Origin: an uncultured Chthonomonadaceae bacterium
GTDB lineage: Bacteria; Armatimonadota; Chthonomonadetes; Chthonomonadales; Chthonomonadaceae
Assembly (NCBI GenBank): GCA_963817895.1
Contig: CAWFQB010000006.1
Span: 144,708 to 208,707 of the forward strand
Direction: 5' to 3'
DNA: 64,000 bases
Part shown: positions 3,312 through 63,472 of the stretch, piece after piece
Layout: each line of letters opens with the position of its first letter
Numbering within the stretch: position 1 is the first letter of the stretch
Notes under the pieces: model-generated
Told to the model about the DNA's origin: nothing
Database searches by the model: none
The model's input: only the letters and a program-made list of their open reading frames with translations
Translations under genes and position numbers: made by a program

Positions 3312-4205
3312 TTATTCAGTCGCGCCATGCTGAAGAAGGAGGGGAATCAGGGCGTCGTTGTGCTGTTCGCGGGCAATGGTGAGGGCGGTTTTGTGGTACT
3401 TGTTGCGTTGGTTCACGTTGGCATGGCGCAGCAGCAGCAGGTTCTCAATAGCAATCACGTCTTTTTCGGGAACCACATTATGCGCAAACATCGCAATGTT
3501 CATCAGGGGCGTGTAGCCGAAGTTGTCCCAGACATTGGGATTCGCGCCGGATTGGAGGAGCAGACGCGCCGCTTCAAATTTGTAATCGTAAATGGTGTAG
3601 TGCAGGGGCGTCGCGCCCAGACTATCCCGAATATTGATGTGGGGATGGCGCTGAAGTAAATGCCGCATTGCGTCCGCATCTCCCCATTTCGCTGTCAGCA
3701 TGAGGAGCGTGACGTTCTTACGCTCCCAATTTTCATACGAGGCGTTGGAGTCGGCTCCATACCGCAGCAGAGTGTTGAAGAGCGCTTTGTCTCTATCCTC
3801 GACGGCTTTCCAGAGAAGTGACGGTCCGCTTTCTCGCGGATCGTGAGCAAGGGCCTCGTCCCGAAATTCGTAGCGCCAGTATGAGAAGGACAGCATCCCG
3901 CGCTGAAAACGATGGCTCATCTCCGCAGGGAAAGAGCCATAGGGATAGGCTTGCGTGTGAACATTCGGGTCCGCCCCCTGTTGAAGCAAATCTTCTATTT
4001 TATCCGTGTGTCCGGCATAGGACAAATCCTTTTGCTGTTTATGTCTCAGGTCTTCCTGCCGGTCTGCAACCGCTTCCAGAAGGCCAATATTGAGGGATTT
4101 CCGCCGCGCTCCCTGATACGTCCAGGCCGCAAACGCGGCGCAGGACAATACGCCAATCCCCCAATTACGCAGGGCGCGGCGAAAGCGGGCGGATCGGCTT
4201 TTCAT
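3312..4205 (-). CDS. Ankyrin-repeat protein with N-terminal membrane anchor
   Basis: 297-aa ORF. Repeat ends LLQQGADPNV, LLRYGADSNA, LLQSGANPNV and LLQHGA are typical ANK repeats. N-terminal hydrophobic helix WGIGVLSCAAFAAW. Confidence 0.8.
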   Translation of the reverse strand: MKSRSARFRRALRNWGIGVLSCAAFAAWTYQGARRKSLNIGLLEAVADRQEDLRHKQQKDLSYAGHTDKIEDLLQQGADPNVHTQAYPYGSFPAEMSHRFQRGMLSFSYWRYEFRDEALAHDPRESGPSLLWKAVEDRDKALFNTLLRYGADSNASYENWERKNVTLLMLTAKWGDADAMRHLLQRHPHINIRDSLGATPLHYTIYDYKFEAARLLLQSGANPNVWDNFGYTPLMNIAMFAHNVVPEKDVIAIENLLLLRHANVNQRNKYHKTALTIAREQHNDALIPLLLQHGATE

Positions 4206-4222
4206 CCCTCATCCCTCATCCC
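4202..4222. repeat. Heptamer tandem repeat (TCATCCC)3, i.e. (GGGATGA)3 on the minus strand
   Basis: Read directly. Unit 3 contains the TGA stop of the amidase (4216-4218) and unit 1 contains the ATG of the ankyrin gene (4203-4205). Confidence 0.9.
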
Positions 4223-6042
4223 TGCATATCGGGCCATTGCTTGTGCCAGTTGGTAGCGCGTTCATACGCCAACCCAAGTCGCAGAATGGCGGCTTCGTTG
4301 TACAGGTTGCCGACAAACTCGATGGATTGGGGAACGCCGTCCACCAGTCCGCAGCGCGTTACCAGCGTGGGATGGCCGGTCAGATTGGTGTATACCAGAG
4401 TGGGGCCGTGAAAGGGAACGGTCACGTAGCAGTCTATGTCCTTGAACGTGGCGGCCATCTCCTGCTGCAAGCGGGTTCGCAGGCGCATGGCCTGTAGATA
4501 GTCGGACGCGGGAATGGTGCTGCCGATGCGGAACGTGTTCGGCCAACTGCCATCTTCCTGCTGCGCCAGTTCATCCAGTTTGCCGCTTGCCGAAAGTTTG
4601 TCGAAAGCCGCCGCGCCCTCCGCGTCAATGGTCAGCCAGGCAATCGGCTGATACAATTCGCGCGTTTTTGGGCAGGTCGATGGGAACAGGCGTCACGCCC
4701 ATTTTATGCAGCGTGTCCAGCGCGTCCTTATACGTTTGCGCCCGTTTGCCCTCTTTGGCGGCGGCATCGAACGCGGTCTGGTCTATGCCCACGCGCAGGT
4801 TTCTCAGGGGCAGGTTCGGGTTCCAGCGGAACGGCACATCTGCCACTGTCGCGTCCCGTCCGTCCGGGCCGTAAATGGCGTTCAGGACGAGGGCGCAATC
4901 CTCCACGCCCCGGCACATCGGCCCGATTTTGTCCATTGTCCACGAGAGCGGCATGGCTCCATAGCGGGAAACGCGCCCGAACGTAGGCCGCAATCCCGTC
5001 ACGCCGTTGCGCACGGAGGGGCTGACGATACTGCCCAGTGTTTCCGTGCCGATGCTGAAGCCGACCAGTCCCGCCGCCGTCGCGCTGCCCGGCCCCGCCG
5101 AGGATGCCGCTGGAACCCTGCTTTGTGTTCCAGGGATTGCGCGTCATGCCGCCGAACCACACGTCGCCCATCGCCAGTTCGCCCATCGTGAGTTTGGCGA
5201 CCAGCACCGCGCCCGCCGCTTCCAACCGCTCCACAACCGTCGCGTCGTAATCGAAAATCTGATGCTCATAGGGTTTCGCGCCCCAGGTCGTGGGGATATT
5301 GCTTGGTTGCCAGCAGGTCTTTGCCGCCCCAGGGGATGCCGTGCAGCGGGCCGCGATATTGCCCTCCGCCATTTCCCTGTCGGCGCGTTCCGCCTGCCTC
5401 AGCGCCAGGTCTTCCGTCAGGTTGACTACGTTGAGCAGGCGCGGGCCGTAGCGTCTTCAGCCGGTCCAGATACATGCGCGTCAACTGCATAGAGGTGACT
5501 TTGCCCGCCTGGATCAGCGCGGACAATTCCACTGTGGAAGCAAAAGCAAGCGATTCCGGGTTGCCGTCGTAGTGGGGCAGGGGAACGCGGCTCATGCGGA
5601 ACGAACCTTTGCCGGTCGCGAACTTCATACCGGGCAGGCGCGGGTCGAAATGGACGGCGGGCGCGAGCAGCGGGTCGGTATCGCCCGTGCGTAATGTCTG
5701 TATGTTCTGGCGAATAGCGCCAAGTGAGCGCGTCATCTGTTCGCGCTGTTTGTCCGTATACGCGCGTCCGGCCAGTTTATCGGCTGCGGCAATATCCCCT
5801 GTGGTAATGGCGTCTTCGGGCGCAACTGCGGGCGCGTTGACTTCTTCCGCGACAGCGGCAGACGCGGTTCCCGCCAATCCCGCCGCCACAAGCCCTTTAA
5901 CGAACTCACGCCGGGGCAATTTCCTGTTCTTGTTGGCTTTGGAAGAGGGTTCCGTGTTCGCAACCGTAGCTTCGGGCGCGTCGGGTGTGGGATTCAGTGT
6001 ATCCGCAGCCTCAGTAGTGGTCGCATCGTGTCGTCGTGGCAA
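4216..6042 (-). pseudogene. Amidase-signature family amidase with Tat signal, split by at least five frame changes
   Basis: Four overlapping minus ORFs (5266..6042, 4728..5372, 4625..5014, 4216..4656) read as one amidase. The pieces are the Tat motif RREFVKGLVAAGLAG, GPLHGIPWGGKDLL, NIPTTWGAKPYE..VVERLEAAGAVLVAKL, GSSG/SSAGPGSATAAGLVGFSIGTETLGSI (GGSSGGS-type signature), VRNGVTGLRPTFGRVSRYG and C-terminal FVGNLYNEAAILRLGLAYE. The last frame switch is in a T5 run at 4664-4668. Confidence 0.75.
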
Positions 6043-8523: not shown

Positions 8524-8641
8524 TAACTATTCACCACCAAGACGCCAGGAACACCAAGCAGAATGCGAAGAAAAACATTGCTTCGCCTGTTTTGCGCCTT
8601 TTATAGCTTGGTGTTCCTGGCGTCTTGGTGGTGAATAGTTA
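8524..8641. repeat. 36-bp perfect inverted repeat (long hairpin) between convergent genes
   Basis: TAACTATTCACCACCAAGACGCCAGGAACACCAAGC at 8524-8559 and its exact reverse complement at 8606-8641. The 46-nt loop contains an inner stem GCGAAG/CTTCGC. Confidence 0.9.
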
Positions 8642-8957: not shown

Positions 8958-9052
8958 GGCACATTCTCCTTGATGGTAGGGGTTCGCAAAATGATCTGGT
9001 TTCGGCACTGCCACTGCGACAGAACACAACGCTGTATACGGGTATCAGGGTT

Positions 9053-9171
9053 TTAGGGTTCTATGGTTCTATGGTTTTAGGGGAAATACATTGTTTTTGT
9101 GCTTTCCACCCCTTTGAACCGTGTGCCTGAACACCTCAGAACCCTAAAACCATAGAACCATAGAACCCTAA
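9053..9171. repeat. 30-bp perfect inverted repeat (long hairpin) abutting the sanA stop
   Basis: TTAGGGTTCTATGGTTCTATGGTTTTAGGG at 9053-9082 and its exact reverse complement at 9142-9171, with a 59-nt loop. The arm contains the tandem 8-mer CTATGGTT x2. Confidence 0.9.
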
Positions 9172-9885
9172 TCACCTAAAGATTGGTTCTCTCTTCCCAA
9201 GATGTGTGGGAACGGGGTGCGTGATATGCGCTTCCAGCCAGGCGTTTTCGATAGCCAGAAATTCGCGCGCCTTGTAGCGGGGCATCACCGCGCCGTAATC
9301 GCGCCGGTCTGCGGGGACGCCCACGACATCCATGCCCAGCGCGCGGGCGGTATACAGGGCGCGGGGCAGATGGTACGCCTGCGTGACCAGAATCGCTTGC
9401 TGTACGCCGAAAATATCGCGCGCCCGATACAGGCTGTCGTATGTGCGGAAACCGGCGTAATCCAGCACAATATCGCGTTTGGGAATGCCCATTTTCAGCG
9501 CGGCCTGCCGCATCGCTTCCGGCTCATTGTGCGTGACCGTGCTGTTGTCGCCGGTCATCAGCAGTTTACGCGCTTTGCCCGTTTTGTACAATTGCGCGGC
9601 GGTGTACACGCGGTCATAGAGAATGGGTGACAATCCGTTGCGCGTGTAACCGGCCCCGAACACAACCACCACCGGGCGGGTGGGAACCGTTTGCAGACTG
9701 TAAAGCAGCGGCCTACCGGTCAGGAAAATATCGGCGTAAATCAGCGCAAGTCCGAGCATAACCGACAGCAAAATGCCGCCTGTGTAGATAAGCCCGCGCC
9801 GGAACCGTCGGGCGCGGGATCGGGCGGCAGGCTGCGTAACAACCGCTTGCGACAATTCGGGCAAGGTGACAACAGCCACGAGCAA
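9172..9885 (-). CDS. sanA: SanA/YdcF-type DUF218 membrane protein
   Basis: 237-aa ORF with an N-terminal TM helix, then VVVFGAGY..G.SPIL.DR...A..LY..GKA.KLLMTGDN....NEP..M...A...GIP..DIVLDYAGFRTYDS, as in SanA. Confidence 0.7.
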   Translation of the reverse strand: MLVAVVTLPELSQAVVTQPAARSRARRFRRGLIYTGGILLSVMLGLALIYADIFLTGRPLLYSLQTVPTRPVVVVFGAGYTRNGLSPILYDRVYTAAQLYKTGKARKLLMTGDNSTVTHNEPEAMRQAALKMGIPKRDIVLDYAGFRTYDSLYRARDIFGVQQAILVTQAYHLPRALYTARALGMDVVGVPADRRDYGAVMPRYKAREFLAIENAWLEAHITHPVPTHLGKREPIFR

Positions 9886-13059: not shown

Positions 13060-14235
13060 ATGACATACGAACCAACGACGCGGCGCGAACTGCTGCGAAA
13101 TGTGGGAATTGCCGCCGCAACGGTGACATTAGGCGGCTTGTGGATGGAAGCGGACGCGCAAAATAAGGCAGTCGCCGCGCCGTCTCTGCCCGTCGCTCTG
13201 GCGCGTTGCGAAACTTACGATTTAGGAGTGGTTACGGCGCGGGTGCAAACCCTGCTGGATCAGACGGGCGGCGCGAAAAGGCTGGCATCGGGCAAAACCG
13301 TTGCCATTAAAGTGAACCTGACTGGCAGCCCCATGAACCGCTTTGGCAACCTGCCCGCGTCCCGCTCGTTCCACATTCACCCGAATGTCGTGCTTGCCCT
13401 TGCCACCCTGTTGGACAAAGCGGGCGCGAAGCGTATCCGGTTTGTGGAGGGGACGTACAGCACGCAGCCTATGGAAAAGACGCTGCAAAACTTAGGTTGG
13501 GATTTGGCGGCGTTCAGCGCCCTTCACGCGCCCGTCGAGTATGAAGACACCCGTAATCGCGGCCCCAAACCCTATACGCTGGTGAAAGTGCCGGGTGGGG
13601 GCGATCTGTTCCCCGCGTACCAACTGAACCACTCGTATGCGGACTGCGATACTTACATTTCGCTCGCCAAACTGAAAAACCACGCCACTGCGGGCGTCAC
13701 GCTGTCCATGAAGAACAACTTCGGCATCACGCCCACCGCGCTCTACGGCCAGCACGACCCGAACGAAAACAGCACGTCGGCGCGTATAGACATCTTCCAT
13801 CAGGGCAAGGACAAGCCCGCCGCCGGTCTGCCGCAGGAAGTAGACCCGAACGGCCCGCGCGTTCCAAGCTACCGGGTTCCGCGCCATGTTATGGACGCCA
13901 TCCGCATCCGTCCCATTGATTTCGCGCTGATTGACGGCATTGAAACCGTATCCGGCGGCGAAGGTCCCTGGCTGCCAGAACTGGCCGCGCTACAGCCACA
14001 TCTGCTAATCGCGGGACGCAATCCCGTCTGCACGGACGCCATTGCCACTGTCTGCATGGGCTATGACCCACAGGCCGCGTCCGCAACCGGCCCCTTTCCC
14101 GGTGACAACCATCTCGTTATGGCGGCCAAACACGGATTGGGTACGAACGATCCCAAGCGCATCGAAGTAGTTGGCCTGACAATCGCGCAAGCGCGGCATC
14201 CGTTCAACTGGGAACCGAAGCAGCGCCATACGTAA
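13060..14235 (+). CDS. DUF362 domain protein with Tat signal
   Basis: ORF 13036..14235. The ATG at 13060 follows GGAGGAG. TRRELLRNVGIAAATVTLGG is a twin-arginine signal. VAIKVNLTG and the downstream blocks resemble DUF362. Confidence 0.6.
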   Translation: MTYEPTTRRELLRNVGIAAATVTLGGLWMEADAQNKAVAAPSLPVALARCETYDLGVVTARVQTLLDQTGGAKRLASGKTVAIKVNLTGSPMNRFGNLPASRSFHIHPNVVLALATLLDKAGAKRIRFVEGTYSTQPMEKTLQNLGWDLAAFSALHAPVEYEDTRNRGPKPYTLVKVPGGGDLFPAYQLNHSYADCDTYISLAKLKNHATAGVTLSMKNNFGITPTALYGQHDPNENSTSARIDIFHQGKDKPAAGLPQEVDPNGPRVPSYRVPRHVMDAIRIRPIDFALIDGIETVSGGEGPWLPELAALQPHLLIAGRNPVCTDAIATVCMGYDPQAASATGPFPGDNHLVMAAKHGLGTNDPKRIEVVGLTIAQARHPFNWEPKQRHT

Positions 14236-14543
14236 GGAAGATAGGGAGATAGGGAGATAGGGAGAGGGGGAGATTGGGAACCGCGAAATACGCTAAATAC
14301 ACGAAAAAAGGACAAAAAGAAGAACACAAGGGAAATAGACAGGATTAACAGGATTTTCAGGATTGAACAGGATTATTCGCAAAGGCGTAGGGGCTTAATT
14401 TATCACGCCCGCCTATTATGTTGTTCTTATCCGTGTATATCCGTTTTATCCGTTCCATCCGTGGTGTGCATTTTCATTTTGTCCTTTTTTCGTTTATTTC
14501 GTATGTTTCGCGGTTCCCACTCTCCTTTTCTCCTTTTCTTCCT
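14235..14543. repeat. ~309-bp imperfect palindrome built from tandem 8-9-mers
   Basis: Left arm AGGAAG(ATAGGGAG)x3..GGGAACCGCGAAATACGCTAAATACACGAAAAAAGGACAAAA. The right arm (reverse complement) is AGGAAGAAAAGGAGAAAAGGAGAGTGGGAACCGCGAAACATACGAAATAAACGAAAAAAGGACAAAA. Inner arms (A)ACAGGATT x4 face ATCCGT-type x4. It spans from the TAA at 14233-35 to the stop at 14543-45. Confidence 0.85.
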
Positions 14544-16338: not shown

Positions 16339-16819
16339 AAGGGATACTCACCAAAAACTTGTCTCAGTCAGCGCGGACTCTGTTGCCACCCGTCATCTAT
16401 ATCTGCCGCATAAAAGCGATTAAATGTTATTCACAGCCTCGCGCGCGATTTTTCTTTGTTGCGCGCGATTTTTTTGCCTGCGACACTTCTAAAATCGCGC
16501 CTGAGTGTTAATAGAGGGCGCATGAAAAACAGAGTCAGGATATACGAGAGAACACCGAAGGAGGTGAAAGCAGCTGCCTGTCCACTCCCGTTCGCCTTAA
16601 CCACTCGGAGGTCACGACGCCTCTACTTGACAACCGCATATTAGTACAACGGGACATCGTAGCTGAAAGCGCTGCATTGCCACTATTTCGACGCTGTCTC
16701 CCTATATTGCTCCTCTTCCATAAACGCGCCTCCCTCCCCTGGCGCAAGGAAGCGCGTTTGCTTCGCTTTAACGCGCTAATATGAATGCGCGGCAAGGAGA
16801 GGGCCGGGGTGAGGTAAAA

Positions 16820-18919
16820 TTAACCCTCCTCACTCGCGTACTGGTCTTTGAGGCTGGCGAAACTGTTGGGATCGGCGAGCGTGGTGACGTCGCCCGGGAC
16901 GCGGCCTTCGACAACGTCGCGCAGCAATGTTCGCATGATTTTGCCGCTGCGGGTTTTGGGCAGTTCGGGAATTATAATTACGTCGTCGGGGCGGAAGATG
17001 GCGCCGAGTTTCATGGCGACAAACGCTTTCAGTTCGCTGCTCAGGGCTTTAAGAGCGGCTTTATCGTCTTTGTCGGGCGCGCGTCCTTCGCGGATGATGA
17101 CGAACGCGATTGGGACTTGTCCCTTGACCTCGTGCGTTTTGCCGACAAATCCTGATTCCGCCACAGCCGGATGCTCCACAAGCGCGCTTTCCAATTCCAT
17201 CGTGCTGATGTTGTGACCGGCGACGATGATAATGTCGTCTACCCGTCCCAACAGCCAGAAATTGCCGTCCACATCCCGCATCGCGCCGTCGCTTGGGAAA
17301 TACAGGCCGGGAAACGCGCTCCAGTACACCTGTTTGTACCGCTCATCGTTGCCCCACAGCGTTCGCAGCATGGAGGGCCAGGGCTTGCGAATGACCAGAA
17401 TCCCCTTTTTCCCATCGGGAACCGGATTGCCCTTCTCGTCCACCACATCCGCCACAATGCCGGGGAACGGGCGAGTCGCGCTGCCGGGCTGCGTTGTGGT
17501 CAGGCCAGGCAGGGGCGTTATCAGTATCGCGCCCGTTTCCGTCTGCCACCACGTATCCACAATCGGGCAGTTGCCATTCCCGATATGTTCGTGATACCAC
17601 AGCCACGCTTCCGGGTTGATGGGTTCGCCCACGCTGCCCAATAATCGTAAACTCGACAGGTCATGCGCGCGCGGAAACTCATCCCCCCACTGCATACACG
17701 ACCGTATCAGCGTCGGCGCGGTGTACAGAATGGTAATCTTATGCCGCTCAATCATATCCCATAAACGCCCGTTATCAGGCAGGGATGAGGGATGAGGGAT
17801 GAGGGATGAGGCAGGATTATTTTCATCCCTCATCCCTCCGCCCTCATCCCTGCCTTGATCCGGCGCCCCTTCGTACATGAAGACGGTGGCGGCGTTGGAA
17901 AGAGGGCCGTACACGACGTAGGAGTGGCCGGTGATCCAACCGATGTCAGCCGTACACCAGTACAGGTCAGTGTCTTTGATGTCGAAGACCCATTTGAAGG
18001 TGGTGTAGGCTCCGGTGAGATAGCCGCCCGTTGTGTGCAGGATGCCTTTGGGTTTGCCGGTGCTGCCGGATGTGTAGAGGATGAACAGCGGGTCTTCCCC
18101 ATTCATGGGTTCGGGCGGGCAGTCGGGGGAAGCGTTAGCCATCAGGTCATGCCACCACAGATCGCGTCCGGGCTGCATGGTAATATTAGCCTGTTCGCCG
18201 ATACGTTTTAAGACAATCACGTTTTCAACGGTGGGGCAACCCTCCGCCGCTTCATCTGTTGTCTGCTTGAGTGGCGCGATATTGCCATTGCCATCATCGT
18301 CATCGGCAGCGATATGCAGCGCTTTATCAATTGTCTGTTTGAGCGGCACGATCTTGCCCCTGCGCCAGAAACCGTCCGCCGTGATAATGAGTTTGGAACC
18401 GCACTCAACAGTACGGTCTCGCAGGGCTTCGGCGGAAAAGCCGCCGAACACGACGGAATGGGGCGCGCCGATACGGGTACAGGCCAGCATCGCAATCGCA
18501 GCTTCGGGAACCATCGGCATGTACAGCATCACGCGGTCGCCCTTTTGCACATTCAGGCTTTTCAGAACATTGGCGAATTTGTTCACCTCCCGCGACAGTT
18601 CGGCAAACGTGAGCGTTCGGATGTCGCCGGGTTCGCCCTCCCATACGATAGCGCGTTTGTCGCCCCGCGTTTGCAAATGCCGATCCACGCAGTTCGCGCT
18701 GACATTCAGTTGCCCGTCGGCAAACCAGCGGGCATGGGGCGGGTTCCATTCCAGAACGGTTTGAAACGGCGTTGTCCAGGTCAGTTCGCGGGCGCAGTCG
18801 GCCCAGAACGCCTCCGTATCCGCATTGGCTTTGGCGTAAATATCGGGATTGTTGGCGTTGGCCTGCCGCGCGAAATCAGCGGGCGGCGGAAAGGTTTGCG
18901 GCGTTGCATTGGTGGTCAC
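16820..18919 (-). CDS. acs: Acetyl-CoA synthetase (AMP-forming), carrying two in-frame insertions
   Basis: 699-aa intact ORF with [43 protein letters not shown] and [15 protein letters not shown]. It is about 50 aa longer than typical because of insertions at 17780-17857 and ~18259-18402. Confidence 0.95.
17778..17857. repeat. Imperfect hairpin repeat, (GGGATGA)4 arm, inside the acs coding sequence
   Basis: Plus strand: GGCA(GGGATGA)4GG (17778-17811), a 12-nt AT-rich loop, then TCATCCCTCATCCCTCCGCCCTCATCCCTGCC (17823-17854). On the minus strand it encodes [26 protein letters not shown]. Confidence 0.9.
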
Positions 18920-19188
18920 GGTTCGGTTACTCCTTGCGAAATACAGGGTTGTTGCGTGTGTTGTTCGACGAACACGCCCTTCATTCCTTCCACGCCTTCA
19001 CCGGCGCAGCGCAATAAAATGTTAAAAATATTCCTTGCGAATACAGGGATTCACGCGGCGCAGGGAGAATACGACGAGTGTGCTTTTTTCTCAACGCCGC
19101 TTCGGGCGGCATACCGTTTCTGGAAGGAGACCGATATGACTCGCATTCTTCGTTCTTCCGCGCCGAGTCCCGCAACCTGCGCGGCGCG

Positions 19189-24688: not shown

Positions 24689-27600
24689 ATGTCTGCTCTA
24701 ACCAGACCAAATCGGGAGTCGTTTATGTCAGCCAAAGTGCCATCTTGCAACAATCGTCTGCGGTTTCCCGTTCTCTGTTCTGTTCTGTATGGATGTCTCA
24801 CGCTTCTCCTGTCCGGCGCATCGCCTGTACATGCGCAGCGAGTACATCCCGCAAATCCCCCTCAACTGCAACAGCCGATTCCCATTCCGTCTCTGGAACA
24901 GCAGCTTTCCCGCCGCCTGCCTCCCCTCGTTCCGGGGCGCGTGACGCTGGAAGGGGATTTGCTGGTAGGATTGGAACCGGGCGCCAATGCGCAGGCATTT
25001 TCCAGGCGCATTCGCAGTCTGGGGCAGGTAGTTGGTTATTCGCCCGCGCTGCGCGTGCTGCGAATCAAACTCAATCCCACTGTGTCCGACAACCGGGCGC
25101 TGACATGGCTGAAGCAGCAGAGCGAAACCACTTACGCGGAAAACAATCACCGCATTCAGGTCACTTCCACTCCCAACGACGCCAGTTATTCTGCGCAATG
25201 GGCTTTGCCCAAAATACAGGCCGATCAAGCCTGGGACATCTGGAAGCCGCAGGGACAGGTGGTTCTTGCCATTGTGGATACCGGCGTAGATTATACGCAT
25301 CCTGACCTGACAAACGTAATCTTCCGAGACACTGCCGGCAATGCCGTCGGCTATGATGCCACCGGCTCCGGGAGTTTCCTGGATGGCTATGGACACGGCA
25401 CACACGTTTCCGGCAGCGCCGCCGCACAAATCAATAACGGGGTCACGTATCAGTACACGGACAGCAACAATGTCGTTCATAGTTTTGGAACGGCGGGAGC
25501 CGTCGGTTGGAACGGAAATCTGAACCAATCCGACACCTCTCACATCAAGATCATGCCGGTTCGCGTGCTGGATAGCAGCGGCTCGGGATCGGATGCCGAA
25601 GTGGCCGATGGTATCGCCTGGCGGCCGATCATGGCGCGCAGGTGATCAGCATGAGCCTGGGCGAACCGGAAGACCCTAATAATCCCGGCCCTCCCTCCAC
25701 GCTCAACGCCGCCGTCCAGTATGCCTGGCACAAGGGTGTTGTTATTGTCGCTGCGGCGGGAAATGACGGGAGTACCGAACACTTTTATCCGGCGGCTTGC
25801 CCCAACGTGATTTCTGTTGCCGCGACAAATTCCGGTGACGGGCTGGCGGACTTCTCTAATTTTGGCGATTGGGTGAACGTGGCCGCGCCTGGCACGGACA
25901 TATACTCGACCGTACCCTCCTATTCCATCAACGGCAACCCGGCCTATTATTACAGCTATTCTTCCGGCACATCCATGGCAACGCCGCATGTCGCGGCGGA
26001 GGCTGCCATGCTCCGGGCGCAAAATCTGACGCTGACCAATCAGCATATCCGTGATTTGATTATTGGCAATGTAGACCCGCTTAATGGCGGCAGAACAATC
26101 AATGGCGGCCTCGGCGGGCGCGTAAACTTCTTTTCCGCATTGAGTTCCCTTTCCAGTTCTTCTGTTCGCATCAACAGTGGCGGTTCGGGGGCGGGCGCAT
26201 TCTCGTCCGATCAGTACTACACGACACCGGGGCTGACGTACAGCACAGGCACGATCATGGACACGAGCGGTGTGATGAACCCGGCTCCGCAAGCCTGCTA
26301 CCAGAGCGAACGCTTCACGCAGTCTGGCCCACTGACGTATGCGGTTCCCAACCTCACGTCCGGCAGCAGTTACACGGTGCGTCTGCACTTTGCCGAGGTA
26401 TACTGGACAGCGGCAGGGCAGCGGGTGATGAACATCAGCCTCAACGGCAACGCTGTTCAGAACAACTTCGACCTTGTGGCCGAAGCGGGCGGCAGGTACA
26501 AAGCGCTCGTCAAGGAGTTCACCGCCGCTGCCGACAATAACGGAACCATGACTATCAGCCTGGGCAGAGTGCAGGGCGATCCCGCTCTCAACGCGCTGGA
26601 AGTGGTTGCCGGAAGCGCGCCTGTCGTAACCGCCAACTACCATATCAACAGCGGTGGTTCCGGGGTGGGAATATTTTCTGCTGACCAGTACTACACGACA
26701 CCGGGGCTGACGTACAGCACAGGCACGATCATGGACACGAGCGGTGTGATGAACCCGGCTCCGCAAGCCTGTTACCAGAGCGAACGCTTCACGCAGTCTG
26801 GCCCACTCACCTACGCTATTCCGAACTTGACCCCCGGCAGCAGTTACACGGTGCGTCTGCACTTTGCCGAGGTATACTGGACAGCGGCAGGGCAGCGGGT
26901 GATGAACATCAGCCTCAACGGCAACGCTGTTCAGAACAACTTCGACCTCGTAGCGGAAGCGGGCGGCAGGTACAAAGCGCTCGTCAAGGAGTTCACCGCT
27001 ACCGCTGACAGCAGCGGAACCATGACCATCAGCCTCGGAAGAGTGCAGGGGGATCCCGCCCTCAACGCCCTGGAGGTTGTGCAGGCCAGCTCAGGTGGGC
27101 CAACTCCTCCCCCCACGATTCCGGCAGCTCCCACAAACTTGACGGCGACAGGAGGAAGCAACTCCATTACTCTCGCGTGGACCGCATCTACGGGAGCAAC
27201 TTCCTATAACATCAAGCGCAGCGCCATTAGTGGCGGCCCTTACACCACCGTTGCCACGCTGGTGAATACCACTTCCTATGTGGATGGCGGCCAGAACTAC
27301 AGCGCATCCAACAATCTGGCAACCGGAGTTCGGTACTACTATGTCGTGACGGCGATGAACGCGGCGGGGGAAAGCCCCAACTCCAATCAGGCATCGGCAG
27401 TGACGACGGGCGCATCTAGCGGATTAAGTTATCACATCAACAGCGGCGGTTCTGCCGTAGGCTCCTTCACCTCAGACGCATACTACACCACGCCGGGGCT
27501 GACGTACAGCACAGGCACGATCATGGACACGAGCGGTGTGATGAACCCGGCTCCGCAAGCCTGCTACCAGAGCGAACGCTTCACGCAGTCCGGCCCACTC

Positions 27601-28356
27601 ACCTACGCTATTCCGAACTTGACCCCCGGCAGCAGTTACACGGTGCGTCTGCACTTTGCCGAGGTGTACTGGACAGCGGCAGGGCAGCGGGTGATGAACA
27701 TCAGCCTCAACGGCAACGCTGTTCAGAACAACTTCGACCTTGTGGCCGAAGCGGGCGGCAGGTACAAAGCGCTCGTCAAGGAGTTCACCGCCGCTGCCGA
27801 CAATAACGGAACCATGACTATCAGCCTGGGCAGAGTGCAGGGCGATCCCGCTCTCAACGCGCTGGAAGTGGTTGCCGGAAGCGCGCCTGTCGTAACCGCC
27901 AACTACCATATCAACAGCGGTGGTTCCGGGGTGGGAATATTTTCTGCTGACCAGTACTACACGACACCGGGGCTGACGTACAGCACAGGCACGATCATGG
28001 ACACGAGCGGTGTGATGAACCCGGCTCCGCAAGCCTGTTACCAGAGCGAACGCTTCACGCGGTCCGGCCCACTCACCTACGCTATTCCGAACTTGACCCC
28101 CGGCAGCAGCTATACAGTCCGGCTGCACTTTGCCGAGGTGTACTGGACAGCGGCAGGGCAGCGGGTGATGAACATCAGCCTCAACGGCAACGCTGTTCAG
28201 AACAACTTCGACCTCGTGGCCGAAGCCGGAGGACGCTACAAAGCGCTCGTCAAGGAGTTCACCGTTACCGCGGACAGCAACGGAACCATGACTATCAGCT
28301 TGAGCGGTGTACAAGGCGATCCTGCACTCAACGCCCTGGAGGTTGTGAAGCAATAG
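24689..28356 (+). pseudogene. Subtilisin-like S8 serine protease with I9-like propeptide, four malectin-like modules and one FN3 domain; one frameshift
   Basis: Catalytic triad contexts AIVDTGVD, HGTHVSG and SGTSMATPH. Frame change at 25619-25622: ..ADGIAW then, in the next frame, ADHGAQVISMSLG, consistent with one G lost from a G-run. FN3: PTNLTATGGSNSITLAWTA..YNIKRS (27.12-27.40 kb). Confidence 0.8.
26164..28353 (+). repeat. Four malectin-like coding modules (about 474-bp spacing between adjacent modules) arranged as a 1266-bp two-module duplication
   Basis: Modules start at INSGGS motifs (~26170, 26644, 27436, 27910). Long stretches are identical at an offset of 1266 bp (e.g. 26215.. vs 27481.., 26521.. 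vs 27787..). Two further copies lie at 23513-24419 (465-bp spacing) in the GH44 gene. Confidence 0.9.
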
Positions 28357-29254: not shown

Positions 29255-29279
29255 GTACCCTAATCGGCGTCTTTTATTA

Positions 29280-29383
29280 AGAGCCTATCCCATCAGGCCG
29301 GGTACAAAGAACGTACCCGTCTGAGTGGCCTGCGGCCAAGCGTCCTTCGGACGCAAATGCAATCGCCTGTTGGGATAGGCTCT
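29280..29383. repeat. Multi-hairpin element, locus 2 (13-bp outer stem enclosing hairpins)
   Basis: Outer stem AGAGCCTATCCCA (29280-92) / TGGGATAGGCTCT (29371-83). Inside are CGGGTAC-N7-GTACCCG, GGCC-tgc-GGCC and GCGTCC-ttcg-GGACGC (29340-54). Confidence 0.8.
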
Positions 29384-29486
29384 AAATCAATCCCCAGGCT
29401 CGAATTACCGAAGAGACTATGGGCAAGGGAGTTTGCCAGAACCAGTTGACGTTCTCCACAAACCCGGCATGACGGAACTGTGCAGA

Positions 29487-41658: not shown

Positions 41659-41672
41659 GTAAATTCCTCAAA

Positions 41673-41700
41673 GGATGAAGGATGAAGGATGAAGGATGAA
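41673..41700. repeat. Heptamer tandem repeat (GGATGAA)4
   Basis: Read directly, 15 nt upstream of the glgP ATG (on the opposite strand). It differs by one nt per unit from the (GGGATGA)n repeats at 4202 and 17782. Confidence 0.9.
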
Positions 41701-41882
41701 GACAAGGCCCATCCTGTTTCCTCTCTTCCCTGTATTATTGGCAGCAAGCGGGTAAATCTTGTTACAGGCGGCAGTGGATTGCGTCGTATCTGCCACGCTG
41801 TTGTTATACGAACGAGGGGACTCAAGGTTCGCGCCTGCAAGTAACAAGGTTGGTGGCGGCTCTCGCAAGGAGTGTGCAAAAT

Positions 41883-42100
41883 GGGGGCTTGTACCCTCAA
41901 CCCCGGCCCTTCTCCCTGATTCCCTCTCTTCGTTCGGAGGGAGAAGGGAGCCAAGTCGCAAGCTGAGTGCGTTGATTACAAAGTTTTTATTCCCGTTCAT
42001 ACCGTGTTCAATAGATAAACCCACCACATTCGCTCCCTTCTCCCTGTCCGCGCAGCGGACAAATCAGGGAGAAGGGCCGGGGTTGAGGGTACAAGCCCCC
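41883..42100. repeat. Nested palindrome: 38-bp perfect inverted repeat with 142-nt loop containing a second inverted repeat
   Basis: GGGGGCTTGTACCCTCAACCCCGGCCCTTCTCCCTGAT (41883-41920) and its exact reverse complement (42063-42100). Inner pair GGAGGGAGAAGGGAGC / GCTCCCTTCTCCCTGTCC. The arms contain the CCCTCAACCCC..CCTTCTCCC REP motif. Confidence 0.9.
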
Positions 42101-45028: not shown

Positions 45029-45050
45029 AGCATATGTCTCTTTTTGTCTT

Positions 45051-45200
45051 GAACCATGATCAGGCATGATTTAGATGATTACCATGATGAGGCTTTCCAA
45101 AGTCGTGGTCTTTATTCAAGCGCCTCAATGCTAGATCAATGCAGTAGAAACGCGCCTACTCAATCATGTTAATCATCTAAATCATGCCTGATCATGGTTC
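45051..45200. repeat. 31-bp perfect inverted repeat (long hairpin) between two co-directional genes
   Basis: GAACCATGATCAGGCATGATTTAGATGATTA (45051-81) and its exact reverse complement (45170-45200), with an 88-nt loop. The right arm contains the last 6 codons and the TGA (45182-84) of the glycosyltransferase gene. Confidence 0.9.
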
Positions 45201-46513
45201 AAGACGGGGTGTAGCAGTCCATCCAATCCGAAAGCCGCCAGAACAACTAAACAGGGCAGAATGGGAACGGAGTAGCGTCCCAGAGCGAGCAGGGCGGCGA
45301 GCAAAACGTTGAGATACGCTATCGGCAATACGAGCGGCCAAACAATCTTCTGTTCGCGCTGCGCCCGTTTCCAGCCCACAAATGCCAATATGCCGTAACC
45401 TAATGCCAGCAGACCGGTCACGAGCGAATTAGCGCGGCTTGTCATCTGATACCAGAAGGTGAACAGGCCGACAACGAATTTACGCGCCAGCCCTGCCGGG
45501 TTGGTGAGCAGGCTTGTTTTCGCGGCCTGCGTCAGAATGTGATCGGATTCGATGTCGTTGCGTTCCCATACGGTATTTTGCGCGAGGCACAGGGAACGGA
45601 AATAGGCGTTGCACTCGTTTTCCGCGTCCGTGTAGGGCGGCAGGCGCAGGGTGGCGTAGGGGAGTTTGGAAAAAATCAGGCCGCGCAAATAGGCGTCGCC
45701 CAACCCCGTTGTTACCAGCACCCAATGCCTGGATACACGGTGATTGCGAACCGTCCAGGGCAATACAACCGCGCCCATTCCTACAAACAGGCAGGCGAGA
45801 ACTTGCCAGCGGGAGGAAGCGTTCTTCGATCCCGCAGGGGAAGCGGACGGGGATTTGACGGGGTTGTCAGGGGTGGATGTATTCATTGCCGCAGATTTGC
45901 GCCCGATGGTCAGCCACGCGATGGCAAACACAAGCGGATACAGCACGAACACGGCTTTGGCAAGGGCGGCAAGCCCGCAGGCAAGCCCGATGGCGGCGGC
46001 GCGTCCCATTGTCGGACGCTGCAAAAATCGGACGGTACACCAGACCGTCAGCGTCCACAGAAACGTGAGCAGTATTTCGACGTGGAAATCGGGGACGTAG
46101 CGCAGCAGGGCGGGGTGAAGAGAGCAGCAGATTCCCGCAATCATTCCGGCGCGGGGATTGAACAGGCGTCGTCCCATATCAACCGCCAGCAGGCTGATTC
46201 CGGCGAATAGGACGCATTGCGCCAACTGTAGCGCAAAGGCGCGTTCCCCGAAAACCGAGTAGACCAGCGCAATGAACAGGGGATACAGCGGCCCACGCCG
46301 ATTGAGAACAGAACCATACGCCTGAAAGCCCTCACCATGCAGCACACTGCGCCCCATCGCTTCATAAGCATACGGGTCGGGGCGCGTATCTACAAAATGC
46401 TGCGCCCGCCAGCCAATTAGGGTCCATACCAGGCCGATAAAGAGGCTCAAAGCGGCAATGCCGAGCGGTGTCAAGTTGCGGGGTATGGAATTGAAAAATG
46501 ATTTCTTCGTCAT
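45182..46513 (-). CDS. Polytopic membrane glycosyltransferase (ArnT/PMT-like, GT39/GT83)
   Basis: 443-aa ORF with about 10 hydrophobic helices. N-terminal loop D.RPDPYAYE..G.S...G.GF and general ArnT-like topology. Adjacent to the UbiA-type lipid-carrier gene. Confidence 0.65.
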   Translation of the reverse strand: MTKKSFFNSIPRNLTPLGIAALSLFIGLVWTLIGWRAQHFVDTRPDPYAYEAMGRSVLHGEGFQAYGSVLNRRGPLYPLFIALVYSVFGERAFALQLAQCVLFAGISLLAVDMGRRLFNPRAGMIAGICCSLHPALLRYVPDFHVEILLTFLWTLTVWCTVRFLQRPTMGRAAAIGLACGLAALAKAVFVLYPLVFAIAWLTIGRKSAAMNTSTPDNPVKSPSASPAGSKNASSRWQVLACLFVGMGAVVLPWTVRNHRVSRHWVLVTTGLGDAYLRGLIFSKLPYATLRLPPYTDAENECNAYFRSLCLAQNTVWERNDIESDHILTQAAKTSLLTNPAGLARKFVVGLFTFWYQMTSRANSLVTGLLALGYGILAFVGWKRAQREQKIVWPLVLPIAYLNVLLAALLALGRYSVPILPCLVVLAAFGLDGLLHPVLNHDQA

Positions 46514-52254: not shown

Positions 52255-52376
52255 TTAGCCGCAAATACACGCGAATACACGCAAATGCAATGCTGCGATG
52301 AAACAGTCAGGCGGAACGCGATTACATAGCAATTAAGTGTCTTTATTTGCGTCCATTCGCGTGTATTTGCGGCTAA
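52255..52376. repeat. 32-nt near-perfect inverted repeat (long hairpin) after the SDR stop
   Basis: TTAGCCGCAAATACACGCGAATACACGCAAAT (52255-86) vs the reverse complement of 52345-76 (TTAGCCGCAAATACACGCGAATGGACGCAAAT), 3 mismatches. The arm is built from AAATACACG-type units also present in the 14235 palindrome. Confidence 0.9.
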
Positions 52377-55420: not shown

Positions 55421-55540
55421 AGGAAGATAGGAAGATAGGAGATACGAGATACGCGTTGGCAGACAGTTTACAGCAATTTCCGTCTTGAAAACGAATTTGA
55501 GTTCAAGTTACCACTCGTATCTCGTATCTCCTATCTTCCT
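55421..55540. repeat. 25-bp perfect inverted repeat (long hairpin) inside the oxidoreductase operon
   Basis: AGGAAGATAGGAGATACGAGATACG (55429-53, preceded by an extra AGGAAGAT unit at 55421-28) and its exact reverse complement (55516-40), with a 62-nt loop. The right arm abuts the TAG (55539-41) of the PaoC-like gene. Confidence 0.9.
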
Positions 55541-57839
55541 AAAGCAGCTTATCCGGCGTAATCGGCAGGTCGCGGATGCGCTTGCCGGTCGCGTGGAAAA
55601 TGGCGTTGGCAATGGCGGCGGGCGCCGCCTGTAATGCCGATTTCGCCGATGCCTTTCACGCCGATAGGGTTGACATGCGGATCGTTTTCCTGCCACGAAA
55701 AAGGCGTCTATTTGCGGCACGTCGGCGTTGACGGGAACATGGTACTCGGCGAGATCGCGGTTCATCACGCGGCCCATACGCGGGTCCATAACGGCTGCCT
55801 CCTGCAGCGCCATGCCGATAGCCCATACCATGCCGCCCATGATTTGCGAATGCGCGGTTTTGGCGTTTAAGAATGCGTCCGGCGGCAAACGCGCCCACCA
55901 TGCGGGCAATACGCGCTTCCCCGGAACTGGGATTTACATGCACTTCCGCAAACTGCGCCCCGAACGCATGGGAAGAATACTCTTTCTTCTCTTCGCCGGG
56001 TTTCGCGCTGCTTTCCGCCGTCAGCATCTCTCTGTTATTACGTTTCAGCAGGTCGGCGTAGGTTTCGCCCTGCGCAGGCGCGTTTTTGCGGAACAAGCGT
56101 CCGTTTTCGCTGCCAATCTGATCTTCGGTCAGGCCGTGCAGGGGCGAGGCCGCGTCCGCCAGTCGCCAGTTGAATGGCCTGTTTGCGGGCTTCCATCGCC
56201 GCCGCTTTCACTGCCGAACCGACGCTTGCCGCCGTTTGCGAACCGCCCGAAACCGGAGCCTGCGGCAACCGCGTGTCGCCCAATTCAAAGTGGACTTTCT
56301 CCACAGGGATACCTAATACCTCTGCGGCCACCTGCGTCATGACCGTGTACGTGCCCGTTCCCAAATCCTGCGTGCCGCTGAAGGCCCGCGCCCGTCCGTC
56401 CGCCATAATTTCTATGCGAACATGCGCTTCGCCCCGGTTGGCGGGATACGTGGCGGTCGCCATGCCGTAGCCGATAAGCCAGCCGTCCTCGGTTTTCATG
56501 GAGCCGATTTTCGGATCGCGCTTGCTCCAGCCGAAACGCTCCGCGCCCTGCCGGTAACACTCGCGCAGTTCCTTGCTCGACCAGGGCAGATTTGGTGCGG
56601 GTCCGTTTCGGCATAGTTGCGCAGGCGCAGTTCCAGCGGGTCCATATTGAGCGCGTACGCCAGTTCGTCCATCGCGGATTCCAGCGCGAAGCATCCGGGC
56701 GCTTCTCCCGGGGCGCGCGGTACTCGTCGGCGTCCCTTTGTTGATGCGAACCAGTTTGTGCGTTGCCTGCACATTGGGGCAGGCGTACAGATATGGGCGC
56801 GACAACGCCGCATTTTTCCGTGAACTCATCATACGGCGACGTGTTGTTGGTGGTGGTATGAATGATGCTTTGCAGCCTGCCATCTCGATCGGCGCCAATC
56901 GCCACGCGCTGCAAGGTCTGCGCCCGATACCCCACCGATGGTAAACATCTGCTGCCGCGTCAGTTCCAGCTTGACCGGGCGGCCCACTTTGCGCGCGGCA
57001 ATCGCGGACAAAATAACGTGCGGCCATGTAAACCCCTTGCAGCCAAACCCGCCGCCCACGAAATAGCAGACGGTTCGCACATTCTCTTTCGGGATGCCCA
57101 GAATCTTCGCCGTCACGTTCGCCGCGCCCGACACCCACTGCGTGGCGTCGTAAAGGGTCAGTTTGTCGCCCTCCCATACCGCGATGGTAGCCGAGGGTTC
57201 TATGGGGTTGTGGTTTTCAACTGGCGTTCGGTACAGTTTGTCCACCTTCACCGGGGACAGCGCGAGTGCCACTTCCGCGTCGCCGCGCTTGCTGTCGTTG
57301 GGTTCGCGGCCCGCATCCTGGGGCGCTTTAATGGCCTCGTGCAGATGCCGCTCCATCTCCGTCTTTGGCGGCTCCTGCTGATATTGCACCTTCACCCGAC
57401 TGGCCGCGTACCGGGCCTGCTCGTACGTTTCCGCCACCACAACGCCGATATGCTGGCCGCTGTAGTAGATGGTGGCGTCCTGCAAGGGCAGCAGTTTTTG
57501 ACCGGGCTTGCCGGGGTTTTCCTGCCCCTGCTGCTGCTGCGCGTCTTCAGGCTTGCTTTTCGGGTCGGGAGAGGGGAACTGATTCAGTTTGGGCGCGTTC
57601 AAATGCGTAATAATGCTCAGGACGCCGGGCAGCCGTTCCGCCTCACCGGTATCAATGCTGACGATACTGCCCCGCGCAATCGTACTCTCAATGATAACCG
57701 CGCGCGCCAGATTGGGCAGGTCGAATTCCGCCGCATAGGGCGCGGTTCCCGTGACTTTCTGCCGCCCGTCAATGCGGTTGAGCGGCTTGCCCACGATTTG
57801 CTCACCCAGGCTGTTGTTTTCTATTGTATCAAGTTTCAT
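55539..57839 (-). pseudogene. Xanthine dehydrogenase-family molybdopterin subunit (PaoC/YagR-like), about eight frame changes
   Basis: The N-terminus is intact (ORF 56829..57839: GKPLNRIDGRQKVTGTAPYAAEF). The rest is recovered only by hopping frames: GYRAQTLQRVAIGADRDGRLQSIIH, RPYLYACPNVQATHKLVRIN, RAPGEAPGCFALESAMDELAYALNMDPLELRLRNY, ..GYGMATATYPA..GTQDLGTGTYT..GDTRLPQAPVSGGSQT.., AFGAQFAEVHVNPSSGE.RI.RMVGAFAAGRILN, AHSQIMGGMVWAIGMAL, NPIGVKGIGEIGITGG, AIANAIFHATGKRIRDLPITPDKLL. Confidence 0.8.
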
Positions 57840-62930: not shown

Positions 62931-63342
62931 AATATCCTTTCAGGAGAGGAAAACAGAATTTGAGACACTGCAAGGGATATTCGCTATTCCGTCTCTATCT
63001 TCCTGCCAACACCAGACGCGCATTTCGATTAGCTACTTGCAGCGCATGGTGACGGCCTGATCCGCGTTCATGGCATAGCCCTGCGCCCACGCCTGCTCGT
63101 ACTCCTGATCGCCTGATTCCGCCGCGCAGTTCGGCCAGTTGCTACCCATGCGTTTCCCGTATGGGTGTCGCTGATCCGCAGATACGAGATGCCTTTTTAC
63201 CTGTTGAGGAACTGAAAAAGAAGTAGCCTGCCCGATGTGTTCAACTACTTCTGCGCCGCCTGTTCGTCACGCGCAGCGCGTTCGCATATAATATCAGCCA
63301 CAATCCTGCCCATACGGATTGTGGCTGTTTGCTGCGTTAGAC

Positions 63343-63472
63343 AACGGAATGAATTCCTTTGCTACGGGCGTTCCGCCAATTGTCCTTCGGACAAAACTCT
63401 CTTGTGGTAGACTCTCGTGTCCGCAGGACACTTAGCCGCAGGCTCATAGCAACGGAATGAATTCCGTTGCTA
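63343..63472. repeat. Multi-hairpin element, locus 4
   Basis: Flanking direct copies AACGGAATGAATTCC(T/G)TTGCTA (63343-64, 63451-72), each quasi-palindromic. Inside are TTGTCC-ttcg-GGACAA (63380-94), GTGTCC-gcag-GGACAC (63417-31) and GCC-gcag-GGC. Confidence 0.85.

Follow-up and report, generated by a model that had tools for sequence, protein, structure and literature searches.

Ogata et al. are said to have described, in 2000, palindromic repeats lying in frame within the housekeeping open reading frames (ORFs) of Rickettsia. These Rickettsia palindromic elements (RPEs) form families of ∼100-150 bp, with a conserved consensus, many copies and a family-conserved peptide. A second class, the short tandemly repeated repetitive (STRR) heptamers of cyanobacteria, was reportedly recognised by Mazel et al. 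in 1990 and is described as non-coding. Inverted repeats are also subject to a mutational process of their own: quasipalindrome template-switch mutagenesis, worked out in E. coli (Ripley; the Lovett laboratory), brings imperfect inverted repeats closer to perfection, can carry a change over from one arm to the other, and leaves its signature at short quasipalindromes. We know of no report in which this process is described as preserving a 33-bp hairpin in coding DNA over long periods. The element considered here is a hairpin of heptamer units situated in frame in the middle of acs, the acetyl-CoA synthetase (acetate--CoA ligase) gene, in a stretch of 64,000 nucleotides (the window) from contig CAWFQB010000006.1 of an uncultured Chthonomonadaceae bacterium of the phylum Armatimonadota. 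The element is real, and as a variant of known repeat classes it is moderately unusual.

Among described classes the nearest is that of the G-rich heptamer simple sequence repeats, with the unit GGGAATC in Xanthomonas and GGGGAYT in Nostoc (Rehm et al. 2015, PMC4692102), and the RPEs are also among the most alike. The heptamer repeats are scattered over many loci, show a preference for arrays of four and differ between relatives at one locus, with 70-75 convergent inverted pairs per genome, of a kind that can form a stem-loop; 89-93% are intergenic, they are under-represented on the coding strand of ORFs, and no function is given for them. The same paper cites the STRR heptamers, and PMC1779305 mentions the RPEs. 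Coding palindromes are also represented by the palindromic amphipathic repeat coding elements (PARCELs), which have a defined 25-residue amphipathic motif, occur as arrays in ORFs without an assigned function, many of which have membrane-targeting sequences, and spread by horizontal transfer (PMC2996958). Nothing specific on Armatimonadetes palindromes, or on the heptamer strings described below, was found in the literature.

The host gene is uninterrupted, as the initial annotation stated. Its 699-aa product scores 916.9 bits against TIGR02188, passing the curated equivalog cut-off of 724.95, and 962 bits against NF001208 (cut-off 657), and it matches Salmonella Acs (PDB 2p20) with an E value of 4e-201. 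The TIGR02188 match is made up of three stretches with two inserts between them. The 26 extra codons of the hairpin (78 nt) lie between YEGAPD and the conserved DRGRFW-side block, and the hairpin covers codons 355-382 of the 699. When aligned with 2p20, the insert falls between N335 and P337, within EGVPN-W-PTPARM, a point at which the Salmonella enzyme has N335-W336-P337 only. The closest relatives of the protein (<=81-82% identity) are Chthonomonadaceae, and an exact-protein look-up matched no record.

The anatomy of the element can be read directly from the sequence (Table 1). An in-frame heptamer hairpin in an intact, conserved housekeeping gene is borne out by folding: the predicted RNA reaches -67.6 kcal/mol against -30.9 +/- 3.6 for shuffled sequences (z -10.3; 0 of 200 shuffles equal it), and DNA parameters give about -38.5 to -38.8 kcal/mol for the two strands (z -11.1 at -38.8). 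The arms measure 33 nt apiece, are 94% complementary and stand 13 nt apart. The heptamer arms first proposed stood, but their description needs correcting: the perfect array is the mRNA 3' arm (TCATCCC; 17781-17811 by Tandem Repeats Finder, period 7, 4.4 copies, 100% matches), and the 5' arm carries a variant unit, GGGCGGA, which causes both stem mismatches. The AT-rich loop segment likewise stood, at 13 nt rather than 12, and the palindrome including its flanks extends over ∼17770-17862. The near-identical codon pairs CCGGAT/CCTGAT, taken at first for a possible target duplication, are something else. The second Pro-Asp pair aligns with the conserved QD of QDRGRFW (CAAGAY in relatives), and the two flanks mirror each other: reverse-complemented, the right one (CCCTGCCTGAT) gives the left one (ATCA(A)GGCAGGG), as is seen when the left flank ATCAAGGCAGGG is set beside the reverse complement of the right, ATCAGGCAGGG; this is therefore an outward extension of the palindrome and not a direct repeat. 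The extension occurs in the window only, is absent in relatives, and alters otherwise conserved residues (Q to P, R to N).

Table 1. Positions of the acs hairpin, its host gene and the related arrays in the window.
Feature	Position	Strand	Description	Basis
acs (acetate--CoA ligase)	16820..18919	minus	intact 699-aa ORF; host of the hairpin	ORF listing and profile scores
Whole palindrome	17770..17862	minus	includes the window-specific outward extension	dot-bracket structure
mRNA 5' arm, G-rich	17823..17855	minus	AGGCA-GGGATGA-GGGCGGA-GGGATGA-GGGATGA; encodes 11 residues	
Variant unit GGGCGGA	17837..17843	minus		read from sequence
Loop, 13 nt	17810..17822	minus	AAATAATCCTGCC; encodes NNPA	
mRNA 3' arm, C-rich	17777..17809	minus	perfect (TCATCCC)x4 + TGCCT; encodes 11 residues	
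Solo (GGGATGA)x3 array	4202..4223	minus	GCA...AAA borders as in the acs 5' arm	
(AAGGATG)x4.4 array	41671..41701	plus	unit variant of the L081 acs hairpin	

Within the 38.7 kb of predicted coding sequence in the window, the acs hairpin is the sole hairpin with a stem of at least 14 bp (codon-shuffle mean 0.65), and a proteome-wide flood of intragenic hairpins was rejected on that count. The 5' arm also contains a G3N4 x4 motif, with a predicted G-quadruplex (G4) of -10 kcal/mol for the isolated arm, which the predicted hairpin (-67.6 kcal/mol) far outcompetes; the G4 was discarded as a conserved feature because the corresponding arm of a related locus, L081, has GG tracts only. No Rfam family matched in the window at the gathering threshold, and a scan of 16700-19100 revealed no terminator-like site.

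Two relatives, at 81% and 77% identity, also bear the hairpin. In L081 (P0001) and L082 (P0003) it is homologous and in register, down to the GGCGGA interruption of unit 2. In a neighbour-joining tree the window groups with (P0001, P0002) and P0003 with P0004; L081 and L082 are on opposite sides of the clade's basal split, and a hairpin common to both speaks against a recent entry. Each of the two belongs to a sister pair, L081/L083 (91.7% aa identity) and L082/L164 (91.8%), of which one member only has the hairpin. The structure is gone from L083 and L164, where the fold z at the site is +2.2 and +0.6, compared with -2.4 in L082, so that turnover at the site is plain. The flanks of L082 are closest to those of L164 right up to the insert; no imported recombination tract is therefore seen, and recombinational import into L082 was rejected. 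In the simplest history the hairpin would have originated once, ahead of the split of these lineages, and later been truncated in L083 and replaced in L164.

The two arms of the hairpin have changed together. Between the window and L081 (85% aa identity; four-fold-site divergence 0.33) there is a G -> A change at the first base of all four 5'-arm units and a C -> T change at the last base of all four 3'-arm units, and five of the 28 stem pairs are changed on both sides. Nine differences are counted among the 56 paired bases, against ∼19 expected if scattered, as the four-fold sites of acs differ at p = 0.33; eight of the nine are compensatory. The encoded peptide is different, GGGMRDE... plus 10 residues in the window and GGRMKDE...SSFILHPSSF in L081. 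Since the pairing is kept and the peptide is not conserved, the maintaining force acts on nucleic acid. The matching of the arms is not absolute, because the 3' arm of L082 has diverged alone: it has been homogenised on its own to TCCTCCT, and the fold there is the weaker one (z -2.4), with a loop that is partly conserved (AAACAATCCTGAT). As judged from these copies, the acs hairpin is old within the clade and its arms evolve in concert.

Translation leaves its own mark on the repeat. A perfect (GGGATGA) array of at least three units has a TGA in every reading frame, and with acs read in its own frame unit 2 would contain the stop. The window has GGGCGGA there, and L081 and L082 have AGGCGGA, which removes the in-frame TGA. 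As the mutation sits exactly where a perfect array gives the stop, the acs hairpin segment is in all probability translated straight through. The inserts of all relatives at the site are in frame (multiples of three) and stop-free, which argues against bypass, splicing and pseudogenisation. A second case of stop avoidance comes from L166, in which the hairpin of the family-B DNA polymerase gene (polB) has GGGCCGA at the corresponding unit, arisen independently.

The site was not a previously clean one into which a repeat could enter, as had been assumed, because the whole family has a length-hypervariable insert there. The loop between YEGxPD and DRGRFW is extended by +4 to +55 residues in 85 of the 85 Chthonomonadaceae Acs examined, with an excess of 0 in all 35 next-best outgroups. 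The commonest family insert is Gly-rich, of +5/6 aa, and reads WG(T/R)EG(K/Q)G; scans of genome contigs and metagenome contigs found 7 and 9 family loci, all with short inserts and no hairpin. Over 150-odd loci of other phyla a 19-residue baseline is the commonest spacing (97 loci). A homologous, non-palindromic segment in unrelated lineages was also looked for, and only a non-homologous +12 aa was found: one unrelated Acs lineage (metagenome loci L107-L163) has a conserved, non-palindromic +12/13 aa at the same loop, DTPRPEHRTGDRADWPKDRLWD, and for that reason the site is permissive in general. An AlphaFold2 model built from a 40-sequence Acs alignment gives insert residues 359-377 as coil with a predicted local distance difference test score (pLDDT) <50, between a strand (345-349) and a helix (385-393). 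The hairpin thus occupies a generally permissive, family-wide hypervariable Acs loop, probably at the surface, that is predicted to be disordered. A separate observation concerns the basal 8-codon insert TGGGGCCGGGAAGGGCAGGGC (L002 10970-10993 and other short-insert Chthonomonadaceae loci), which is a canonical G4 motif, predicted at -25.5 kcal/mol with G4 allowed, and may be a by-product of Gly codons.

The heptamer is not confined to acs. The related arrays reported earlier at two other places in the window are real (Table 1), and double heptamers with <=2 mismatches number 12 in the window against 0.31 expected. Neither of the two solo arrays forms a significant hairpin (z +1.0 for the array at 4202-4223 and +0.3 for that at 41671-41701). 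RGGATGA arrays are also present in the MtaB gene of L164, in polB of L166 and in L081, with 0 in 0.9 Mb of control loci. The L166 copy (13451-13530, minus) is itself an in-frame (GGGATGA)/(TCATCCC) hairpin, at -46.2 kcal/mol and z -4.5. Clade arrays mostly have 3-5 units, typically ∼4; the unit RGGATGA, with ∼4 units per arm, is typical of this Chthonomonadaceae clade, and the acs element belongs to a clade-typical family of short-unit repeats. In a census of long-stem hairpins (stem >=20 bp, identity >=85%) the near clade has 1.33 per 10 kb, 0.26 of them with tandem-repeat arms; the figures are 0.85 and 0.13 for other Chthonomonadaceae, and 0.28 and 0.02 for 52 control loci of other phyla. 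When an idealised hairpin peptide served as the query, the matches were tiny ORFs of 32-80 aa only, with no other long host proteins among them.

On balance it is probable, by a narrow measure, that the acs hairpin is an inverted-pair copy of the clade-typical G-rich repeat RGGATGA, made by slippage and strand switching and tolerated in a loop predicted to be disordered. The G-rich array would have grown by replication slippage from the Gly-rich WG(R/T)EGxG coding sequence of the basal +5/6-aa insert, and intrastrand template switching (snap-back synthesis) would then have laid down the inverted copy. Afterwards, slippage within arms and strand switching between arms could have homogenised the units and kept the arms complementary, and in the window lineage the same process may have pushed the palindrome outward into flanking codons. 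Selection would remove only variants that break the ORF, hence the persistence of GGGCGGA at unit 2; ectopic templating is a possible occasional contributor at acs. Slippage, template switching and near-neutrality are all put forward here conditionally. The hairpin is best taken as a structural repeat that most likely maintains itself and is close to neutral. Since it has been shortened or replaced in close relatives, it is no essential regulatory device, and it is probably not mobilised by a transposase. Of the two options in the original description, a mobile or an expanding repeat, expansion in place is favoured.

Several findings at the site itself bear on this reading. In L165 a 60-aa insert includes a 34-bp stem at 100% identity, GGGGGAGA/TCTCCCCC, and the unit GGGGGAGA repeats the conserved W-G-R codons beside it, TGG-GGG-AGA, letter for letter. 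In L164 a tandem GAGACARG array stands alone, without an inverted counterpart, and L166 has another G-rich/C-rich pair. To find different units at one acs site in different lineages suggests, so far as the sequences can tell, an origin in place. The G-rich arm comes first on the sense strand in all four clear in-frame hairpins and therefore continues the G-rich Gly-coding sequence of the basal insert. Among the long hairpin arms in 0.35 Mb of Chthonomonadaceae DNA nearly every one matches its own partner only, and the acs and L166 polB copies differ in loops and ends, the unit alone being common.

Other observations weigh against growth in place by slippage and strand switching. The RGGATGA unit occurs at non-orthologous places (window 4202 and 41671, L164 MtaB, L166 polB), the array at 4202 and the acs arm have identical GCA...AAA borders, and a few other unit types recur between genomes; the same unit at non-orthologous loci suggests some dispersal or ectopic templating, and not purely local growth. 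Differing hairpin sequences at one site would also be expected from structural selection. The trees are neighbour-joining trees without bootstrap support, and the homologous hairpin copies compared are three only (window, L081 and L082).

A rival account is a mobile element. On this account the hairpin would be a small non-autonomous mobile palindrome of the miniature inverted-repeat transposable element (MITE), repetitive extragenic palindromic (REP) or RPE type, which hit the acs loop repeatedly and survived where it was in frame. RGGATGA arrays and hairpins do lie in unrelated genes and spacers of several clade genomes, with none in the 0.9 Mb of controls; polB of L166 has an in-frame hairpin of the same unit, the tiny spurious ORFs of several phyla have the same peptide signature, and these genomes contain MITE-like palindromes and DDE transposases. 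Mobility is nevertheless unlikely: the acs hairpin has no target duplication, its loop and ends are not conserved in the polB copy, most hairpin arms match their own partner only, the L165 unit equals its flanking codons, and the acs copy is old, vertically inherited at its site and the sole intragenic hairpin in 38.7 kb of coding DNA. Support is no more than partial for the original proposal, in which the gene was entered by a mobile element that left a target duplication. A broader reading attributes to the Chthonomonadaceae an active process, for which hairpin-primed or template-switch repair would be a candidate, that writes G-rich arrays and their inverted copies and keeps the arms matched, coding DNA included, with the acs hairpin perhaps additionally selected; this we regard as doubtful. 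If it were true, a core enzyme would through this process harbour a hot spot of hypervariable hairpins that renews itself, and the hairpin might tune Acs expression as an RNA or DNA structure. Either way, the locus would be a natural system for measuring arm-to-arm concerted evolution of a translated palindrome.

Selection on structure would act through a hairpin or G4 in acs mRNA or DNA, for pausing between folding units, mRNA stability or expression. It gains from pairing that is preserved by compensatory changes while the peptide changes, from the presence at this site, in different lineages, of three or more hairpins of unrelated sequence, and from a short family insert that is itself a G4 motif (predicted -25.5 kcal/mol). 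Against it, neither of the sisters L083 and L164 retains the structure (z +2.2 and +0.6), the arms of L082 have drifted apart (z -2.4), the inserts of most family members add 5-6 residues and form no hairpin, conservation of the G4 fails in the L081 arm (GG tracts only), there is neither an Rfam match in the window nor a terminator-like tail, and concerted evolution alone is sufficient for the covariation. This explanation is rather improbable. The notion that the segment is removed before or during translation, by bypass, splicing or excision in the manner of gene-60-type hopping or the yeast mitochondrial 'byp' inserts, draws on a stable hairpin between two Asp codons (GAT ... GAT) that superficially resemble take-off and landing codons. 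No stop codon follows the putative take-off codon, however, every relative's insert is a stop-free multiple of three, the TGA-creating unit is mutated in three lineages, and intron or intein features and an Rfam intron match are lacking. Ribosomal bypass, frameshift and splicing were rejected for want of a slippery site or stop in an in-frame, stop-free insert, and removal is highly improbable. Palindromes are known assembly trouble spots, and a fold-back chimera or collapsed repeat could mimic such an insert; the frame is preserved, however, and two independent assemblies made from other samples (L081, ERZ25039475; L082, ERZ26273034) have homologous hairpins at that codon, with lineage-specific compensatory differences, which argues against an artefact and makes it the least probable explanation of all.

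The solo arrays have surroundings of their own. GCA(GGGATGA)3AAA (4196-4226, minus) forms the junction of an amidase-like ORF and an ankyrin-repeat ORF (3312..4205), where it supplies the upstream TGA stop and the downstream ATG, with the GAGG of the preceding unit at Shine-Dalgarno distance; the heptamer at 4202 therefore equals a translational-coupling junction motif. The array at 41671-41701 closely precedes an alpha-glucan phosphorylase gene, whose start is at 41658. L164 has repeat inserts in two conserved genes (17164-17290 and 3947-3980), those for MtaB and a FAD-binding flavoprotein. The MtaB gene has GGGAAAR and TTCATCC arrays in its TRAM region, the TTCATCC insert forming no significant hairpin, and the flavoprotein gene (Pfam FAD_binding_2 / Succ_DH_flav_C) has a GGGAAAA array. 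In public metagenome annotations dozens of 'hypothetical proteins' of 32-80 aa from several phyla (P0121-P0184) show an MRDEGG... pattern and, judged from the peptide pattern alone, appear to be spurious ORFs across heptamer hairpins.

Long-stem hairpins in the window lie in spacers, mostly at gene 3' ends, the acs copy being the exception. Eight are intergenic, at 8524-8641, 9044-9172, 14235-14543, 29276-29387, 45046-45205, 52255-52376, 55428-55541 and 63342-63469, with stems of 23-43 bp that are often perfect, loops of 46-150 nt and a sequence of their own in each; their density is ∼5x that of control loci of other phyla. The arms of several consist of degenerate 7-10-nt tandem units, and the nested array set at 14235-14543 fills the entire gap between the stop codons of two convergent genes. 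A 218-bp MITE-like palindrome (41883-42100) has terminal inverted repeats, ACCCTCAACCCCGGCCCTTCTCCCTG, resembling those of a 200-bp palindrome of L081 (9696-9896) just upstream of acs, in which the repeat includes CCCTCATCC/GGATGAGGG, longer than a single unit of the acs heptamer; among the loci examined the 218-bp palindrome had no other copies. At 26170-28340, inside a 904-aa ORF (25642..28356), a 474-bp (158-aa) tandem repeat occurs in two blocks of ∼1.8-1.9 copies at ∼90% identity. The acs gene itself has a second in-frame insert (18275-18346, minus) of 24 aa, which is specific to the window lineage and has no counterpart in any of 39 aligned relatives. Its parts are a 27-nt direct duplication (18320-18346 matches 18248-18274 at 22 of 27 positions, PLKQTIDKA / PLKQTTDEA) and a 45-nt spacer encoding 15 residues; the insert forms no hairpin (fold z +0.85), and the AlphaFold2 model has pLDDT <50 for residues 188-213.

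Palindromes lying in frame in housekeeping genes are best known from Rickettsia; the locus adds a case among free-living Armatimonadota, and provides a link to the G-rich heptamer repeats of Xanthomonas and cyanobacteria, which are poorly understood in both origin and function (PMC4692102). It offers unusually clean evidence for the concerted evolution of arms, in four parallel compensatory unit changes, and for a repeat constrained by translation, in the mutated stop-creating unit. One loop of a conserved enzyme is a hot spot of repeat birth, replacement and loss, at which the mutational mechanism, the cost of intragenic structure and the making of new protein segments from repeats can all be tested. 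There are practical consequences as well: heptamer hairpins create spurious small ORFs in metagenome annotations and may mislead Acs marker-gene alignment.

Compared with the heptamers of Xanthomonas and Nostoc, the acs element has the same format. Its unit GGGATGA is 7 nt long with a run of at least three G (GG only in the L081 unit) and period 7, the units number 4 + 4, and two convergent arrays are close together, 13 nt apart. Length and sequence at the locus vary widely between relatives, as they do there. The unit is lineage-typical and occurs at several loci (three in the 64-kb window, plus L164, L166 and L081), and the solo arrays at 4202 and 41671 are within ∼50 bp of ORF ends. The differences lie in the unit, in the phylum (Armatimonadota) and above all in the setting: the acs copy is not intergenic but in frame in the middle of a core enzyme, and its hairpin outcompetes a predicted G4 that is not conserved. 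Concerted compensatory evolution and stop avoidance are not described in the available portion of PMC4692102. With the STRR heptamers the element has in common tandem heptanucleotide arrays that are lineage-specific and dispersed; units and phylum differ, and the acs copy is coding.

The RPEs, named as a precedent in the initial annotation, are a fair analogy. As with an RPE, the palindromic insert in acs keeps the ORF open and adds a peptide in a predicted surface segment; in contrast with an RPE, it is 78 nt of 7-nt units, has only the unit in common with other loci, and changes its peptide while the pairing is kept. PARCELs are alike in their dyad symmetry within coding DNA and in the variable repeat segments that proteins gain from them; acs, by contrast, encodes a cytoplasmic enzyme, and its one hairpin gives rise to no conserved protein motif. 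The resemblance to MITEs and to REP sequences or bacterial interspersed mosaic elements (BIMEs), that is, to short palindromic DNA at gene 3' ends, belongs to the intergenic hairpins of the window and the palindrome at 41883-42100; the acs hairpin has neither a target duplication nor conserved termini, and 0.35 Mb of Chthonomonadaceae DNA yielded no second full-length copy of it, still less a family. The process that it does recall, in its compensatory unit changes and its extended flank, is the quasipalindrome mutagenesis of E. coli.

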